Notes: generated from the letters alone by a model not told the origin. DNA of 64,000 nt from Bacteroidia bacterium (GCA_051861545.1 JBIMKP010000007.1:5206-69205); one strand, 5' to 3'; numbered from the stretch's first letter, positions 4,372 through 47,733 are shown. Translations and numbers: made by a program.

Positions 4372-4408
4372 TTTTCTTGGTTTGAATAAGCTTTGTATTT
4401 GCTTAAAT

Positions 4409-4796
4409 GGATAGCTATATTTTTACTGTAAGTGATTTTTAGTAAATAGGGTTCATATTTTGATTGAAATTTTCAAAAAGTAGTTTGGTTTTAAATTTCT
4501 CTATTTTACAAAATTTAAGACCCCGATAGGTGGTCTCATGTTTATAGAAAAATGCTTTAGATAGACTTCTCCTCCCATTTCTCTTCAAGGCGGACCTTCG
4601 GTCCGCCTTGAAGAGAAATGGGAGGGACTTTGCATTAAATTTCTTTTTCTATAATCATGTCATCCCTTCTGGATTTTTAAAAACTTGTTCTAGTTCTCGT
4701 TTATCTTTTAGGGTTGATTTTAATGAGTATAATCAAAATAAAATTATTTAAGATTCGCTAAAGGTTTTTTCTAGTATAAAGCCGCTTAATCGTATT
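4409..4796. mobile_element. MITE-like intergenic repeat, copy 1 (~390 bp, non-coding)
   Basis: Shares conserved blocks with the copies at 9545, 33202 and 47346: ttttcaaaaa.tagtttgg, aagaccccgataggtggtctcatgtttatagaaaaatgct, ataatcatgtcatccctt. Contains a perfect 55-bp palindrome at 4571-4625. Confidence 0.7.
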
Positions 4797-9054: not shown

Positions 9055-9076
9055 GTGGCTTTGATTTTTATTTCTT

Positions 9077-9328
9077 TCAAAAAGTTAACTTACTAGAACT
9101 GCTGGAAAAGGTTCTACTTTCATTAATTACATTGATGATTTCCTCAGCTGATTCATTTGAATCCCATGCTCCATATGACTCAAAAAATGAAGACTTTTTT
9201 TCTGTAATGTCAGTCTTTACTGATTGTGTAAGCTTTGAGATAAGGTCAAGTTTATTACTTGGACTAAGATTATCTAACATTTTTAAATAACCATCAATTA
9301 AGGTCGTATTTATGTCTATAGCTTTCAT
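9077..9328 (-). CDS. Hypothetical small acidic protein
   Basis: 83-aa ORF convergent with ccmE and ending at the bidirectional terminator. Protein-like composition (..FFESYGAWDSNESAEEIINVINESR..). The overlapping + strand ORF 9039-9290 is low-complexity and unlikely. Confidence 0.4.
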   Translation of the reverse strand: MKAIDINTTLIDGYLKMLDNLSPSNKLDLISKLTQSVKTDITEKKSSFFESYGAWDSNESAEEIINVINESRTFSSSSSKLTF

Positions 9329-9544
9329 TTAGTTCAAGTTAATTAACAAACAAATATAATAAAAAGAGTCAAGCTGTTTAGTTATCAATGCTTTGAATAA
9401 ATCAAGCATTAACTAAGAAAATCTCATTTTGGTATTTAAAAAATGAGATTAATATCCCTTTTGAATAAATAAATTCAACTCCGAGGAAATTTCAAATAAT
9501 TCAAAAGTTTAAGTTTTTTAATTGAACCAATATTTTAAGAATTC

Positions 9545-9946
9545 GAATACCGCAAATTTACCAGTTGAAAAAATATTAGGATAGCTGATCCTAGTATTAT
9601 TCTTGTCTTAAACTAATTCAAAAGTTGCATGTTATTTTGCTTCAATATTGAACTTTGAACAAACAAAAATTATATTTAAACTGCGTAAAAACCCCGTTAG
9701 GTGGTTTAACATTGGTAGTATTAAAATCGTTTGAACGTCCTACGCAACGCCCTCTCTTCCGCGGACCGAAGGTCCGCGGAAGAGAGGGCGTTGCGGGTGT
9801 GTTTATTCATTTATGTTCTACCAGTGTTATGTACCTGACGGCACAAAAGATTTTAGTAAAATGAAAGTTCAATTTTAAAAAGAAAGAATTAAAAATTCCC
9901 TTAATCCCAAGAAGAAAACTTTTTTTAGGAAAAGAAGCGGATAGTC
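9545..9946. mobile_element. MITE-like intergenic repeat, copy 2 (diverged)
   Basis: Left end gaataccgcaaatttaccag and right end gaagcggatagtc match the TIR region of the other copies. Conserved ccccg.taggtggt block. Perfect 53-bp palindrome at 9743-9795. Confidence 0.6.
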
Positions 9947-10066
9947 GTATTTAATAATAAAGAAAATGTATTCACTCATTTTCACTTCAAACTGGCTTCT
10001 CTCTAATTTCATTATTCACTCAGTCATACTTTCAAATTTTACACATAGAAAAGTACTGCTTATTCA

Positions 10067-15898: not shown

Positions 15899-15917
15899 GG
15901 CTAATTTTTATTGGAAA

Positions 15918-16919
15918 TTACTTTTTCAATCTCCAGATATTTCCATTTTTTGTTTGAAAAACCTGCAATTTCCCTTCTTTACTTAATTGATTCAGAATCT
16001 CCAATCCCTTATTTGTATTGACTTCACTCAATTCACAAAACTCTTTTAATGTTAAAGATGAAAACATGGTGAATAATGATTTCCAATCTTTGTTATACTT
16101 CTGTTTGATTGCATTTGGATTCAAGCTAATTATGATATTTTCAAATGCTGTATAAGGTTTAAATCCATTTATGTACTGGAAGTTTTTAGTTTGATTTGAA
16201 ATTATCAATGTTGGAAAGCCGCGAACGCCTGTCTCAGCAGTAATTTTAAGGTCGTTTTGAAACAACTCATTTGCTATGTTTTCTGAATCTTTTTTTAGTT
16301 TGATTGCATCCAATCCAACTTCTTTTGCTGCTGAACTCAAATAAGTCCAATTACAAATATTTTTCTTTTCTAGAAATACCATTTCTCTAATTCTTCTTAG
16401 AAATAACAATGCCTTCTCTTCATCTTGTAGTTGAGCAGCTTTAAATGCAATTGAAGGAGGATAAGACGATGGAAGTGGATCTTCTAACCAAATATCACCA
16501 TCAATTGGCATTTGGTAATATTGGCTAACTTCATCCCAATGGTGTGATACATCAGAAGGTTTACTAATGCCACCACTATTGTATGACCAGTCTTTTAGTA
16601 AACCACCCATTCTGTATTCAATAGAAAAATAGTCTCCATATTCTAATTTCAGTTTTCTTAACTGTGCTTCAATTCCCCAACAAGATGAACAAATTGGGTC
16701 GGTGAAATAAAAAATATGAATTGATTTATTGCTTTGTTTTGGTACGATATCAATTTGTTGTATTGTTGAATCTGCAATTTCACAGGTTCCTGAATCGGTA
16801 TTGCATAAAAGTGGATTATTGCTTTTTTCTTGATGTTGCATGTTTTTGGTTTGTGCATCACATGCAGTTGTTGTAAGTAAAATTAAGAAACTACAAATTA
16901 GTGTGATGCGTATTTTCAT
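15918..16919 (-). CDS. DsbA-like thioredoxin-fold oxidoreductase (secreted)
   Basis: CSSCW active-site motif (FYFTDPICSSCWGIEAQ). The signal peptide starts at MKIRITLICSF. The ORF extends to 16970. Confidence 0.55.
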   Translation of the reverse strand: MKIRITLICSFLILLTTTACDAQTKNMQHQEKSNNPLLCNTDSGTCEIADSTIQQIDIVPKQSNKSIHIFYFTDPICSSCWGIEAQLRKLKLEYGDYFSIEYRMGGLLKDWSYNSGGISKPSDVSHHWDEVSQYYQMPIDGDIWLEDPLPSSYPPSIAFKAAQLQDEEKALLFLRRIREMVFLEKKNICNWTYLSSAAKEVGLDAIKLKKDSENIANELFQNDLKITAETGVRGFPTLIISNQTKNFQYINGFKPYTAFENIIISLNPNAIKQKYNKDWKSLFTMFSSLTLKEFCELSEVNTNKGLEILNQLSKEGKLQVFQTKNGNIWRLKK

Positions 16920-32949: not shown

Positions 32950-33201
32950 GATTTTAAAATTTTATAAATTGATGTTTACAAACTACGTACCAATCGCACC
33001 AAAATTAAAATGATGGCAAAAAGGAACATATAAATGCTGATTCTATTGATTCCATGCATCATTTTTAAGTTAAATGATGACGGACTGTCAGGATTTGGCT
33101 TTTTCCAGAATTGTAAATACGACAGAAATTTCTCCCACATAGCTGATAATTTTAAAAACAAATTTAAGATTAAACAATCAATACTCATATTGTTTTTTTG
33201 C

Positions 33202-33598
33202 GAGTATCCGCATTTACCAGCAGTAATTTTTTATAAATCCGGTGCATGTTTTGAGAAATATTTTCAAAAAATAGTTTGGAATAAAATTGCTCTATATAGT
33301 GAAGTTTAAGACCCCGATAGGTGGTCTCATGTTTATAGAAAAATGCTCGAAATGGATTCCCCCAAATCTCTACAAACGCGGACCAAAGGTCCGCGTTTGT
33401 AGAGATTTGGGGTGGTTTTTCTTTACTTTTTTTCTTCTATAATCATGTCATCCCTTCAGGATTTTAAGAATTTCAAGAAAGAACTTGTTCCTGATTTAAA
33501 TTCATGTTTGGGGTTTATTTTGATTTTATTGAGTAAGCATCTTTATTAAAGCTTTGAAGATTCGTAAAACAGATTCTTAGATAAAGAAGCGGATACTC
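33202..33598. mobile_element. MITE-like intergenic repeat, copy 3 (best preserved; 10-bp TIR gagtatccgc / gcggatactc)
   Basis: The TIRs are read directly. The element is flanked by ~20-bp direct repeats atactcatattgttttt(t)tgcg at 33181-33202 and 33593-33613. The internal perfect palindrome is at 33366-33418. Confidence 0.7.
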
Positions 33599-33637
33599 AT
33601 ATTGTTTTTTGCGAAAATTTAAATCTGCTTAAAAATA

Positions 33638-36200: not shown

Positions 36201-36492
36201 GAATTGTATTTTTAAGGTGATTTTTTGCTTATTGAGCAATTTAAGCTCCTACTAAAATCTTGCTGATTCCTCATTAGCCATGCGGTTTTAACCCATGGGG
36301 AATGAGGAGTTAGAATCTAATTGCTATATCATAGAAAAATTACAGTTTTTAGTTGTTTGAAGCTTTGTCAATTATCTCATATTGATAAAAAGGACTTCCT
36401 TCTTGGATTGAACTATTATTGTTTTCAAACTAAATTCACTATCATTTTTATAGAATCAAAAAGAAACCTAGTTTCCATCTTATATTTGCTAA

Positions 36493-37440: not shown

Positions 37441-37695
37441 GTGGGACAATTATTAAACATTATGGAAATCAAAAATCTTTATCCTAACGAATGGGTTTTG
37501 ATTGGAAATCCTGTAATGGACGACACTAAAATTGACGTTATTTCAGGTGTTCCTATTTATCATAGCAAGGACAAAAAGGAGGTATGCTATATTGGTCGCA
37601 ACAAGACTTCTTCCTACGACAAAATTACCTTAATTTTTACCGGTTCATTCAAGCCGACCAGAAAAATTACAGGTATTTTCAATCGCATTAAATAA
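37441..37695 (+). CDS. Hypothetical 84-aa protein, translationally coupled to the downstream retropepsin-like gene
   Basis: Its stop TAA overlaps the next ATG by one nucleotide (TAATG). Confidence 0.4.
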   Translation: MGQLLNIMEIKNLYPNEWVLIGNPVMDDTKIDVISGVPIYHSKDKKEVCYIGRNKTSSYDKITLIFTGSFKPTRKITGIFNRIK

Positions 37696-38087
37696 TGATT
37701 TTTCCATTCAAAAGAGAACCCGAAAGTGGGCTCCTTATAATTAGCATTGAAATTGATTCAAAATTCGAACTTAAAATGGTATTGGATACTGGAGCAACAA
37801 ACACTACCATTGACAGCAATGCTTTGTATTTATTAGGATATGATCTTAAAGACAGTATTGGGTTAGTGGAAATTGAAACAGCTAATGGAATCATTGAAAC
37901 AGAAGTATTCGAAATTGGTAGTTTTAGTTCTCTTGGTCAAATAAGGGAAAACTTTCAAATTCAGGTTTATGATTTCTTGGCACACGGTATATTTTCCGAC
38001 TATAATGGCCTTATCGGACTGGACTTTTTAGAGGGACAAAAGTTTTGTATTGATTTGAAGTTAAATACAATTACCTTAACAAAATAG
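37695..38087 (+). CDS. Retropepsin-like (clan AA) aspartic protease domain protein
   Basis: Catalytic motif VLDTGATNTTID. 130-aa stand-alone domain. Confidence 0.6.
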   Translation: MIFPFKREPESGLLIISIEIDSKFELKMVLDTGATNTTIDSNALYLLGYDLKDSIGLVEIETANGIIETEVFEIGSFSSLGQIRENFQIQVYDFLAHGIFSDYNGLIGLDFLEGQKFCIDLKLNTITLTK

Positions 38088-44083: not shown

Positions 44084-44157
44084 GGGGGATTAGCTCATTT
44101 GGCTAGAGCGCTTGCCTGGCAGGCAAGAGGTGACCGGTTCGAATCCGGTATTCTCCA
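44084..44157 (+). tRNA. tRNA-Ala (anticodon GGC)
   Basis: Folded by hand. Acceptor GGGGGAT/ATTCTCC with the G3:U70 Ala identity pair. D-arm GCTC-ATTTGGCTA-GAGC. Anticodon arm CTTGC-CTGGCAG-GCAAG. Variable loop AGGTG. T-arm ACCGG-TTCGAAT-CCGGT. Discriminator A. No encoded CCA. Confidence 0.85.
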
Positions 44158-44168
44158 CTGAATAATAA

Positions 44169-44193
44169 GAAGACGGCTTAGGTCGTCTTTTTT
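44169..44193 (+). terminator. Rho-independent terminator after tRNA-Ala
   Basis: aagacg-gcttaggt-cgtctt followed by a 7-nt T-run. Confidence 0.6.
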
Positions 44194-44198
44194 TGTTT

Positions 44199-44275
44199 TT
44201 GGGATTAGCTCATTTGGATAGAGCGTGCTGACAGTATCGTCAGCAAGGTGACCGGTTTGAATCCGGTATTCTCCA
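44199..44275 (+). pseudogene. Degenerate tRNA-Ala-derived copy C
   Basis: The acceptor 5' strand has mutated to TTGGGAT. D-arm and T-arm are intact. The anticodon arm is replaced by hairpin TGCTGAC-AGTATC-GTCAGCA, the exact reverse complement of the hairpin in copy A. Confidence 0.55.
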
Positions 44276-44314
44276 CTGAATTAAACACGATTATGTTCGT
44301 CTTTTTTGTTTTTA

Positions 44315-44354
44315 GGGATTAGCTTAATTGTGCTGAGGATTCTATCAGCATTTG
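44315..44354 (+). pseudogene. tRNA-derived 5' fragment D
   Basis: gggattagcttaattg followed by hairpin tgctga-ggattcta-tcagca. Rest of the tRNA is absent. Confidence 0.45.
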
Positions 44355-44534
44355 AAAACCACACAGAATTAAATGGTTATATTAAAAATTATCTTTCTTC
44401 AAATTCAAGTAAACAAGTGAGTGTTGAGGTTTTAACTCAGTCGGATGCCGAACAACTATTAGCAAGCATAAAAGAAAAGATTGAGTTACATGAACAAGCA
44501 AAATAACAAAAGCCCGAAATTAATCGGGCTTTTG

Positions 44535-44696
44535 TTATTTTAAGGCTTTTGCTATTAAGCTAATGGCTAGTATTGCAGCTGAGGTTAGCACAATAGCGTT
44601 AACTATCTCAGCTGTTTTGCCATATACTGTAACACAAGTTTGCTTGTTGCACAGTGTAACTTTTTCGCCTTTGGGGTAATTGTATAAATTACTCAT
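44535..44696 (-). CDS. Possible small membrane protein (53 aa)
   Basis: Not in the ORF track. MSNLYNYPKGEKVTLCNKQTCVTVYGKTAEIVNAIVLTSAAILAISLIAKALK. Ends at the palindromic terminator aaaagcccgaaattaatcgggctttt (44508-44533). Confidence 0.25.
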   Translation of the reverse strand: MSNLYNYPKGEKVTLCNKQTCVTVYGKTAEIVNAIVLTSAAILAISLIAKALK

Positions 44697-44762
44697 AAAG
44701 ATAAAAAATTAAATTGTAACAATTCCCTCACTCTTACCCGGAGGGTTCAAGTTTCTGTTGTA

Positions 44763-44930
44763 TTACTCTTTTGTAATACCTTTAAATGGAGTGCCGTCAG
44801 ATTTGCCATCCATAAACTTTCCGTCTGGACCTCTTTTTGTCCAGATTTTAGTTAACGGATTTAAAACTTGAGTACGATCTTTAACAGCACCTTTACGGTG
44901 GCCATCTCCAATTGGCGCATTTTTAGCCAT
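44763..44930 (-). CDS. Possible small basic protein (55 aa)
   Basis: Not in the ORF track. MAKNAPIGDGHRKGAVKDRTQVLNPLTKIWTKRGPDGKFMDGKSDGTPFKGITKE. ATG start. No homology recognised. Confidence 0.3.
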   Translation of the reverse strand: MAKNAPIGDGHRKGAVKDRTQVLNPLTKIWTKRGPDGKFMDGKSDGTPFKGITKE

Positions 44931-45126
44931 AATGTTCTAAAATTTAACTTTACAGGCTGTTTTAAACTGAGCCACCTGTCACCAAGCCAAGAAAAAGACA
45001 TTTTGAATACTACCAGCAATTGTTACATTTGTGTTACCAAACAAAATATGTTAGCATGAGCTTGCAGAATTCGGGGGAGTCTTTTTCGGCTTCCCCTTTT
45101 TATTACACAAATTTAAATCTTTGTTT

Positions 45127-45160
45127 TGGACAAATCAGAAATATTTTTTATATTTGTCCA
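45127..45160. promoter_or_regulatory. 9-bp inverted repeat tggacaaat-N16-atttgtcca overlapping a TAnnTTTG -7 box (tatatttg, 45149-45156) upstream of the XRE-ImmA gene
   Basis: Perfect inverted repeat read in the sequence. An operator overlapping the promoter suggests autorepression by the HTH domain. Confidence 0.4.
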
Positions 45161-45201
45161 TAAGTTTTTCCCATTCCTAAGGCAATCAACTCTTTCACTA
45201 T

Positions 45202-46263
45202 ATGCAATACTTCAGCAGTCGATTAAAAAGCGCGAGGGTAATGAATGGTTTTTCATTACAAGATTTATCTGATAAATTGAAAGGAGAAATTTCTAAACAA
45301 GATTTGAATAGATTAGAATTAGGTTTAAATCAGCCTAATAGTGAAATTTTAGCTAAGCTTTCTTCTGCTTTGAATATTCCTTCTGATTATTTTTTTAGAA
45401 ATGAAACAATCAATCTTCCTTCCGTTGAATTTAGAAAACTAACCAAACTTCCTAAAAAAGACCAAGAAGCTGTTAAAGGAAAAACCATTGATTTTTTAGA
45501 ACGATACGCAGAGCTTGAGAATTTAATGGGTGTATCTCAATCACCAGTATTTAATCATAAAGAGTATGTGATCAATTTTAATAGTCCTGAAGAAATTGAA
45601 AAAGCGGCCAATGTTTTCAGATCTAAATTAAATCTTGGTATAGATCCCATTTATAATCTTATTGAATTGTTAGAAGAAAATGGAGTTAGGGTGTTTTCTA
45701 CAATTGCTTCTCCATCATTTTCTGGAATGTCCACTTGTGTTGCAAATTCACTATTAGTGGTTGTTTTTAATAATAATGAAGAAATACCTTTAGTAAGAAA
45801 ACGATTTACCATTTTGCATGAAATCGCACATTTATTTTTGGATTTGGAGAAATTCGAAGATAAAGTGAAAGAGCGTATTTGTGATTCTTTTGCAGGGGCA
45901 GTGTTGCTTCCCCAAAAGAAGTTATTAGAATATTTTGGTCCCAAAAGAAATAATTTTCTCACTAAAGAATTAATGGCTATAAAATCATATTTCGGAATTT
46001 CAATACCAGCAATTATTTATCGAGCGAATTCAAACCAAATAGTGAGTGACAATTATCTTAAATACTTTATGATTCGGTATAATAAAGAATATAAGGATTT
46101 GGAAAAAAACGGCTATTTAGGGAAGGAAGAGTCTCAAAGGTTTACTCAATTGCTGCTTAGGGCAGTTGCTGAGGAGGTAGTAACTTCTTCAAAAGCTGCA
46201 TCTTTGAATAACCAAAAACTATGGGAGTTTAGAAAGCAATTCATTGATAATATCTCTTATTAA
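45202..46263 (+). CDS. XRE-family HTH fused to ImmA/IrrE-type (M78) zinc metallopeptidase
   Basis: N-terminal HTH (..LKSARVMNGFSLQDLSDKL..). C-terminal HExxH motif ILHEIAHLFLD with downstream conserved E/D. 353 aa. Confidence 0.7.
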   Translation: MQYFSSRLKSARVMNGFSLQDLSDKLKGEISKQDLNRLELGLNQPNSEILAKLSSALNIPSDYFFRNETINLPSVEFRKLTKLPKKDQEAVKGKTIDFLERYAELENLMGVSQSPVFNHKEYVINFNSPEEIEKAANVFRSKLNLGIDPIYNLIELLEENGVRVFSTIASPSFSGMSTCVANSLLVVVFNNNEEIPLVRKRFTILHEIAHLFLDLEKFEDKVKERICDSFAGAVLLPQKKLLEYFGPKRNNFLTKELMAIKSYFGISIPAIIYRANSNQIVSDNYLKYFMIRYNKEYKDLEKNGYLGKEESQRFTQLLLRAVAEEVVTSSKAASLNNQKLWEFRKQFIDNISY

Positions 46264-46298
46264 GTCCTTTTTAATTTCGCCATCGTAATTCTACTCCA

Positions 46299-46799
46299 AT
46301 GCAAAAAATTGCCATTACTGATGCAAATATTTTTATTGATCTAATCGAAACTGAAATTTTCGAATATTTGTTTCAATTCGGAATAAAAGTACATACTACT
46401 TATGAAGTTTTTGACCAATTAAGCCCAAATCAACAAGAAATACTTAAGTCATTTGAGTTAAATGGAGAACTTGTAATTTACTGTCTTTCATATTATGAAT
46501 TAGTTCAATTAGAGAATTTGCAATTTCCAGCAGGTTTAGAGCTTGCTGATAGATCGGTCTATTTTTATGCAAATAATATTCAAGGTTTGGTTTTAAGTGG
46601 AGATAGAAAACTAAAAAAATATTGTGAAAGTAAGCAACTTCGAGTAAATGGGATAATTTGGGTATTTGACCAGATTCATGAATTTGGTCTTATTCAAAAG
46701 GCCGACTTAGTTTTCAAACTGAAATTATTAATGAAAATAAATAAAAGATTACCTGTCGAAGAATGCAATAAAAGGATTCATGCATGGCTTCAGGGCTAA
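46299..46799 (+). CDS. PIN-like nuclease domain protein (DUF4411-like), partner of the XRE-ImmA gene
   Basis: N-terminal IAITDANIFIDL carries the first PIN Asp. Central ..ELAD.. and SGDRKL acidic motifs. 166 aa. Sits 35 nt downstream on the same strand. Confidence 0.5.
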   Translation: MQKIAITDANIFIDLIETEIFEYLFQFGIKVHTTYEVFDQLSPNQQEILKSFELNGELVIYCLSYYELVQLENLQFPAGLELADRSVYFYANNIQGLVLSGDRKLKKYCESKQLRVNGIIWVFDQIHEFGLIQKADLVFKLKLLMKINKRLPVEECNKRIHAWLQG

Positions 46800-47263: not shown

Positions 47264-47345
47264 ATTGGTATTTTATTGAAGAAATTCAAAAATAGAGCTT
47301 CGATTTTCTTAAAATATAAACTTCTTTAAAATATAAATCAATTTT

Positions 47346-47733
47346 CCGCATACTTACCAAGTATAATTTTTTATAAATCCCGTGTTTATTTTGAAAAGTA
47401 TTTTCAAAAAGCAGCTTGATGTTAAATTGCTCTTTTTTATGAAATTTATGACCCCGATAGGTGGTCTCATGTTTATAGAAAAATGCTAAAAATGAATTTC
47501 CCAACACTCTACAAACGCGGACCAAAGGTCCGCGTTTGTAGAGTGTTGGGCTGGTTTTCTTTACTTTTTATTTTCTATAATCATGTCATCCCTTCAGGAT
47601 TTTTAAGCGTTTCTAAAAAAAACATGTTTCTGATTTTAATTTATGTTTTAATGAATATTTTGATTTTTTAGAGTCATTATCGGGTTTAAGGCCTTTGAAA
47701 GTTCTTTTAGGTAAATAAGTGGATATTCGTTAG
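47346..47733. mobile_element. MITE-like intergenic repeat, copy 4
   Basis: Closest relative of copy 3, with long near-identical blocks. Flanked by imperfect direct repeats atataaatcaatttt (47331-47345) and atattaaatcaaatt (47734-47748). Palindrome at 47504-47554. Confidence 0.7.

Follow-up and report, generated by a model that had tools for sequence, protein, structure and literature searches.

The four repeats of ~390 bp found in the 64-kb stretch of DNA analysed here (the window; 32.4% G+C, from a lineage of uncultured freshwater Bacteroidia) very probably represent an apparently undescribed MITE family, that is, a non-autonomous DNA transposon mobilised in trans. An earlier note on this DNA had proposed a MITE, and this reading is supported by the inverted ends, the target duplications, the non-coding content, the occurrence of several copies, the existence of empty sites and the absence of a transposase nearby. 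This kind of element is ordinary; what is unusual is the concerted evolution of its centre.

The family of four copies described previously is real, and its members lie on the + strand essentially where they had been placed; with their limits set by the inverted ends, all four are intergenic, one of them within the ccm cluster, as had also been reported. Copy c1 (4407–4793, 387 bp) is located between a DUF2490 gene on one side and a DUF885 gene on the other, c2 (9542–9948, 407 bp), which belongs to a divergent subfamily, between ccmE and ccmF, c3 (33200–33600, 401 bp), the copy on which the earlier note was centred, between a Zn-peptidase gene (−) and DtxR/MntR-Nramp genes (+), and c4 (47338–47730, 393 bp) between a DUF2200 gene (−) and a gene encoding 258 aa (+). 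Full-length copies measure 383–407 bp. When the four intergenic regions were compared with the window by BLASTN, c3 and c4 displayed 81.8% identity over 357 bp, c1 and c3 77.9% over 249 bp, and c1 and c4 77.0% over 248 bp; c2 matched the other copies through the central hairpin only, and in the alignment it has in common with them only the core motif, the hairpin apex and both ends. The description of c3 and c4 as near-identical has thus to be replaced by a match of 82% overall, with identical blocks of 31–38 nt inside. Such a level of identity gives no support to the recent mobility proposed for these copies, although a sister species does lack c3. The shared blocks quoted before are present in the sequence; in the window CCCCGWTAGGTGG occurs 4 times with 0.28 occurrences expected, and GCGGACCNNNGGTCCGC 4 times with 0.08 expected. 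The perfect hairpins of c1–c4 (24–26 bp) all rank within the top five longest close inverted repeats of the window, in which a profile built from 16 copies found no fifth copy.

Alignment and consensus folding showed that the family ends in imperfect 21-bp terminal inverted repeats, ACGAATATCCGCATGTTTACC at the 5' end and GGTAAAGAAGCGGATAnTCGT at the 3' end. At 18 of 21 positions the 5' consensus agrees with the reverse-complemented 3' end (ACGAnTATCCGCTTCTTTACC), and these ends recur in 15 copies. In c3 they read GCGAGTATCCGCATTTACCAG (33200–33220, +) and GATAAAGAAGCGGATACTCAT (33580–33600, +); the 10-bp inverted ends gagtatccgc/gcggatactc previously assigned to this copy are present, but their true length is 21 bp. 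The ends of c2 are TTCGAATACCGCAAATTTACC and GGAAAAGAAGCGGATAGTCGT, those of c4 TCAATTTTCCGCATACTTACC and GGTAAATAAGTGGATATTCGT, and those of c1, which are decayed, ATGGATAGCTATATTTTTACT and AGTATAAAGCCGCTTAATCGT. We then compared the 9-mers adjoining the two ends. Six insertions display perfect 9/9 duplications, all different and AT-rich (ATTACTTTT, ATTGCTTAA, TTACTATAC, ATAGAATTA, ATAGTATTT and TTGTTTTTT); among random pairs of window positions 390 bp apart, a 9/9 match is reached with a frequency of 0.00015, allowing a slip of ±2. The flanking 9-mers of c1 and c2 match at 7–8 of 9 positions (7/9 for c1, TTTGCTTAA and ATTGCTAAA), and the flanking repeat of c4 is imperfect (AAATATAAA vs AGATATTAAA). 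The direct repeat of ~20 bp reported around c3 exists and measures 22/23 nt: its left copy, ATACTCATATTGTTTTTTTGCGA (33181–33203, +), contains the 9-bp duplication TTGTTTTTT, and its right copy, ATACTCATATTGTTTTTTGCGA (33593–33614, +), overlaps the final 8 nt of the 3' end. The true target duplication, however, is 9 bp, and the longer repeat is this duplication plus flank resembling the element's own ends. At c1, c3 and c4 the flanks stay similar for a few bases outside the 9 bp, in sequence that looks like the ends of the element itself; end-like sequence may be preferred as a target, or the relic of an end may be present.

These flanks are what would favour a small integrative element moved by site-specific recombination of the tyrosine, serine or Xer type: the 22/23-nt direct repeat of c3 would correspond to attL/attR cores, and the flanks of c1, c3 and c4 beyond 9 bp resemble the element's ends as B/B' arms would. 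This att-type integration, which the earlier note had offered as an alternative, is refuted by the duplications, which differ at each insertion; an att core is excluded because six perfect 9-mer repeats of unrelated sequence are found, an exact empty site in the window holds one 9-mer only, and no recombinase or integrase family occurs among the neighbours or the tested window ORFs. We therefore regard it as highly improbable. Very little probability is likewise left to a relative of the single-strand-DNA transposons, either REP/REPIN with RAYT or of the IS200/IS605 type, in which the hairpins would serve as recognition structures. The small conserved hairpins and the structure-preserving variation do resemble elements recognised as folded single strands, but IS200/IS605 and REP/RAYT families have neither terminal inverted repeats nor a target duplication, whereas 21-bp inverted ends and 9-bp duplications are present here, and the conserved hairpins lie inside the element, ~110 nt away from its ends, rather than subterminally.

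Empty sites in relatives, the recovery of which had been proposed as the way to define the length of the target duplication, were obtained. In the sister-species contig L020 the site of c3 is uninterrupted and carries CATATTGTTTTTTG once, with flanks 85–88% identical to the window and DtxR 96% identical. The ccmE–ccmF spacer measures 1081 bp in the window vs 151 bp in contig L015 (~90% nucleotide identity), and 62 bp and 44 bp in the more distant L016 and L017. The insertion of ~945 bp (9060–10005), not found in these three relatives, holds c2 together with an 83-aa minus-strand ORF. An ortholog of c2 is found in contig L014, 95.5% identical over 1 kb. The 83-aa ORF (9077–9328, −), located upstream of c2 and without Pfam match, is conserved in the same contig at 95.5% nucleotide identity. 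From ~1215 onward on the reverse strand of L014, compared with 9895 onward in the window, the ccmE side is kept, the final ~100 nt of the element differ, and the gene downstream is dxr, not ccmF, which suggests that a rearrangement broke within the MITE and produced a chimeric element.

Copy c1 is an old insertion, because it is present at the orthologous site in the sister-species contig L015 with 94% identity; the 9-bp duplication is still perfect there (ATTGCTTAA). The same contig harbours a sibling element (L015 11127–11384) of 258 bp, non-coding, which has the 21-bp ends of the family and an unrelated interior, and which is flanked on both sides by the perfect 9-bp duplication ATTACTTTT. 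In the window this target is unoccupied: ATTACTTTT is single at 15917–15925 (+), the exact empty site of the sibling. A second end-like sequence lies 37 nt in from the 5' end of the 258-bp element. For c4 no empty site was obtained, the sole contig with an identical flanking protein coming from the same sample.

No conserved ORF was found among the copies, in agreement with the previous statement that none has a plausible one: a 91-aa ORF (33034–33309) overlaps the 5' part of c3 only, and a short ATG frame in the core meets an early stop in c1 and in the outside copy L002. The genes adjoining every copy are housekeeping genes. As the earlier note had it for the window, no mobilising enzyme is in sight: none of the 41 window ORFs tested against Pfam hit a transposase or integrase family, and no transposase with these ends was found in the window, next to any copy, or in ~250 kb of related loci. 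A scan of all retrieved loci for the 21-bp ends returned the MITE ends and the 258-bp sibling only, and the search for a parent IS found neither matches to the ends in viral contigs nor similarity in plasmid or phage collections. We propose that a transposase, whose existence we infer, is supplied in trans and would cut AT-rich intergenic DNA at two staggered positions 9 bp apart to insert the element, thereby producing the 9-bp duplication. This enzyme would most likely be a DDE transposase from an IS family with 9-bp duplications. The unrelated 258-bp element is likewise mobilised by these ends.

A MITE carrying cargo was also considered and rejected. In contig L011 (761–4306) a 3.2-kb ABC-3C defence cassette, consisting of genes for a DUF2326 ATPase, MC6 and SMEK_N-CTD10, interrupts a MITE copy whose 9-bp duplication is intact. 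The cassette is a nested insertion into the MITE and not its cargo, because the same cassette is found at 96% nucleotide identity in contig L025 without the MITE. Homologs of the SMEK protein with up to 93% identity are annotated in MAGs of Limnohabitans (Betaproteobacteria), which suggests a recent cross-phylum transfer.

Prokaryotic MITEs are defined as non-coding elements of 50–800 bp with inverted ends of at least 10–15 bp and duplications of 2–10 bp, for which the transposase acts in trans (PMC11602168). The present family resembles them in every respect that could be compared: a small, non-coding body of ~390 bp, inverted ends of 21 bp, a duplication fixed in length (9 bp) and variable in sequence, AT-rich intergenic targets, multiple copies, and insertion polymorphism in the form of presence/absence differences. 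Unlike prokaryotic MITEs in general, it has inner blocks whose conservation is above that of the ends, and a central palindrome subject to concerted turnover. A known element with similar targets is MITEAba12 from Acinetobacter, which is 113 bp long with 16-bp ends, has ISAba12 as its mobiliser and displays outward promoters with transcripts; it is also non-autonomous, with imperfect inverted ends, 9-bp duplications and an AT-rich preference, and only its ends display identity to candidate parent IS elements (PMC6382973). The element described here has 3.5 times its length and is a palindrome throughout; it lacks a promoter consensus and shares no sequence similarity with MITEAba12. Correia elements of Neisseria and the ERIC/IRU elements of enterobacteria are high-copy intergenic imperfect palindromes that form long hairpins when transcribed and can carry regulatory signals; their lengths are 100–155 bp or ~127 bp, and Correia elements duplicate TA. 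Set beside the present family by description only, they are alike in being intergenic imperfect palindromes, and differ in being shorter and, for Correia elements, in a duplication of TA vs 9 bp here.

The whole element is an imperfect palindrome, which aligns end to end with its own reverse complement; the fold of c3, when compared with shuffles, has a z of −8.2 on the + strand and −10.3 on the − strand. Its centre is occupied in the window copies by a perfect hairpin with 26-bp arms and loop TTC in c1 (4571–4625, +), 25-bp arms and loop GAA in c2 (9743–9795, +), 25-bp arms and loop AAA in c3 (33360–33412, +), and 24-bp arms and loop AAA in c4 (47500–47550, +). The stem sequence of this hairpin (24–28 bp) differs in almost every copy, yet complementarity is almost perfect, with 360 of 369 stem positions in 15 hairpins forming Watson-Crick pairs. 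The mismatches comprise 4 G-T vs 4 A-C/C-A and display no RNA-strand bias; a G-U bias noticed by eye in three copies, taken as evidence for an RNA strand, was discarded upon this full count. The loops come in complementary pairs, AAA/TTT and TTC/GAA. Between c1 and its ortholog in L015 there are five stem differences, each matched on the opposite arm, and the loop TTC has become GAA, and between c2 and its ortholog in L014 the outer stems are largely different and both are perfect. Finally, the central hairpin is cleanly deleted in L001 and L007.

Template switching is known to homogenise the arms of inverted repeats and to invert their spacers (PMC8604942, PMC8794818). The palindromes so described are like the one studied here in that the arms are kept identical, changes arise simultaneously in the two arms and the spacer is inverted, here including TTC to GAA; they are unlike it in that the present palindrome is the centre of a multi-copy mobile element, where between-copy conversion may add to the process. 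The matched arm changes, the loop inversion and the lack of strand bias together are therefore read as a DNA-level process, and the hairpin "covariation" is probably of this nature, supplemented by conversion between copies. From the sequence comparisons, the turnover of the hairpin with its loop flips would be the signature of DNA template switching: the hairpin would be kept complementary by template switching within the palindrome and by gene conversion between copies, and not by selection on an RNA. Concerted evolution of the arms and inversion of the spacer can here be followed cleanly, in a natural setting, between orthologous copies of the central palindrome. This calls for caution, as perfect "compensatory" changes in a hairpin need not imply selection on RNA structure.

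In addition to the palindrome, the element has two conserved inner blocks. In c3 the left one spans 33300–33346 (+); a small hairpin, AGACCCC-GATA-GG-T-GGTCT, lies in it together with the 5' arm of helix 2 (CATGtTTATAGAAAA). The right one spans 33432–33465 (+) and contains the 3' arm of helix 2 (TTTTCTATAAtCATG) as well as a further hairpin, ATCC-CTTCA-GGAT. Pairwise identity averages 0.93 in the left block and 0.89 in the right, vs 0.58 and 0.67 at the ends, the conservation of the outside loci being partly by construction over the 28 nt of the core-block pattern with which all of them were retrieved. In the c1 ortholog pair the inner blocks diverge by 3–4%, compared with 19–26% for the left arm and hairpin. 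Conservation of inner blocks above that of the ends is contrary to a simply decaying MITE and leaves room for a function at the level of the host or of an RNA; it suggests either conversion tracts centred on a fragile palindrome or a function of the blocks themselves, which could act as an RNA, a folded DNA or a binding site for a protein and for which their conservation is the only positive sign. Across ten copies, 96.4% of the cells in the proposed pairing are paired vs 84% in shuffles, with slid controls giving 40–47%, and there are 24 double-change pairs, a count reached by 0 of 500 shuffles. Of these pairs 17 fall in the central hairpin and the remainder depend on the single c2 lineage, helices 1, 2 and 6 being those in which the c2 subfamily and the main type differ by compensatory changes. 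Such changes are less readily explained by short-range template switching, the arms of helix 2 being ~110 nt apart. It is rather unlikely, but conceivable, that inner blocks, hairpins and helix together constitute a functional structured module, either RNA or single-stranded or cruciform DNA, that was selected after the ends had decayed and that would be used in mobilisation or by the host, with the palindrome as a fragile site driving between-copy conversion. If true, the family would be a MITE with a conserved structured payload and not mere decaying transposon ends.

A stronger version, in which the copies would primarily be structured-RNA genes or modules riding on a mobile vehicle, with a domain of ~170 nt (core hairpin, helix 2, variable and right hairpins) under selection as RNA, is in our view improbable. 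The excess of paired cells and the 24 double-change pairs, inner blocks 0.89–0.93 identical with ends at 0.58–0.67, the maintenance of helices 1, 2 and 6 in the c2 subfamily through double changes, and the + strand fold of c3 all speak for it. On the other hand, the − strand of c3 folds equally well, as a DNA palindrome would, no G-U excess is seen among the hairpin mismatches on either strand, and both complementary loop forms occur, which a selected RNA loop would not tolerate; the hairpin is dispensed with in L001 and L007, helix 2 is broken in the recombinant copy L003, and the covariation beyond the central hairpin comes from one divergent lineage. Nor is there an Rfam match: at gathering score the window matched a tRNA only, and with E up to 10 c3 gave only hairpin-driven microRNA/snoRNA matches, far below thresholds. 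Moreover, the Bacteroidetes promoter consensus is found in no copy, a T tract follows the hairpin in only 2 of the 4 window copies, and the orientation relative to genes is 9:6. To a cis-regulatory leader of the downstream gene we assign hardly any probability: each of the four copies in the window points the same way as the + strand gene that follows it, but over independent loci 9 copies are co-directional and 6 convergent, the downstream genes are functionally unrelated, and the same genes occur in relatives without the element, at empty orthologous sites. The co-orientation of 4/4 copies in the window is chance, because of this 9:6 ratio. The retained reading remains that of a MITE whose central hairpin would turn over at the DNA level.

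Domestication of the copies as promoters, terminators or sRNA genes, as the earlier note had suggested, is not supported, given the lack of promoter consensus, the restriction of terminator-like features to c3 and c4, and the mixed orientation. The Bacteroidetes promoter TTG-N17-21-TAnnTTTG is absent from both strands of 16 copies, so that an internal promoter suspected from TAGTTTGG was abandoned, no copy fitting the consensus. The hairpin was likewise tried as an intrinsic terminator module and dismissed, since c3 and c4 score as terminator-like and c1 and c2 do not.

In order to follow the family beyond the window, a 28-nt degenerate core pattern was scanned over the GTDB set, one genome per species. 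It returned 11 DNA stretches, 10 of them from three freshwater Bacteroidia MAGs (Lake Mendota JBIPMI, JBMLOK; pond JAIYDG) and the eleventh a contig of 33% G+C binned as a cyanobacterium; the JGI metagenome set added one further locus. In all, 13 further matches are found outside the window, on 12 contig stretches (freshwater MAGs plus one metagenome contig), with 2–6 pattern matches in each of the three fragmentary MAGs and several copies sitting at contig ends. No copies were recovered by core pattern or similarity search of viral, plasmid and phage collections. As far as public collections show, the family is thus restricted to a narrow lineage of uncultured freshwater Bacteroidia. The eleventh stretch, L003 (CALRIT020000016.1; 33% G+C), was binned with the cyanobacterium Vulcanococcus but probably represents Bacteroidia DNA placed in the wrong bin; its copy is recombinant, the 5' half being of the main type and the 3' half of the c2 type, and helix 2 is broken in it. 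In L009 (~620–800) the 3' part of the MITE is replaced by ~3 tandem units of ~37 nt (ccggggcaattgaatgcatggtctaaagt...), a different local repeat.

The family is repeated enough to break short-read assemblies. Short-read contigs of the same organism that match the window at 100% identity have an end within c2, c3 or c4, and one contig of 14,038 bp spans exactly from c3 to c4. Such breaks make it plausible that the genome contains many copies. The copies thus explain the fragmentation of short-read assemblies at particular intergenic sites in these genomes, and they are markers for insertion polymorphism at the strain and species levels. Altogether, a MITE family with defined ends, target length and subfamilies is added to a poorly known lineage of uncultured freshwater Bacteroidia.

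Further features of the window were noticed. A second, unrelated repeat of ~70 nt is present at 36255–36320 (+), with the pattern AAAATCYTGCTGATTCCTYAYTAGCC..GG-TTTWA-CC..GG..RTRAGGAAT, 55 nt past the stop of the Nramp-Usp gene. It recurs in L019 (2663), L001 (2465 and 2695, −), L006 (3253, −) and L015 (11243), the 258-bp sibling MITE containing one of the copies. No Rfam family was matched even with E up to 1, and the outer stem of the repeat covaries (CCTCATT/AATGAGG, CTTTATT/AATAAAG, CCTCACT/AGTGAGG, CCTCAAT/ATTGAGG). Between the SmpB and OMP genes, the gap is 908 bp in the window vs 46 bp in the sister-species contig L019, and two small ORFs are found at 37441–38087, one of 84 aa without family and one of 130 aa with a match to Asp_protease_2; because the gap in L019 is only 46 bp, these ORFs represent another lineage-specific insertion. 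Finally, at 44084–46799, tRNA-Ala(GGC) precedes two genes, one for an HTH_3 + Peptidase_M78 (IrrE-like) protein and one encoding 166 aa, annotated as DUF3368 in a Logan record; together they could form a small island adjoining the tRNA, a short way upstream of c4.
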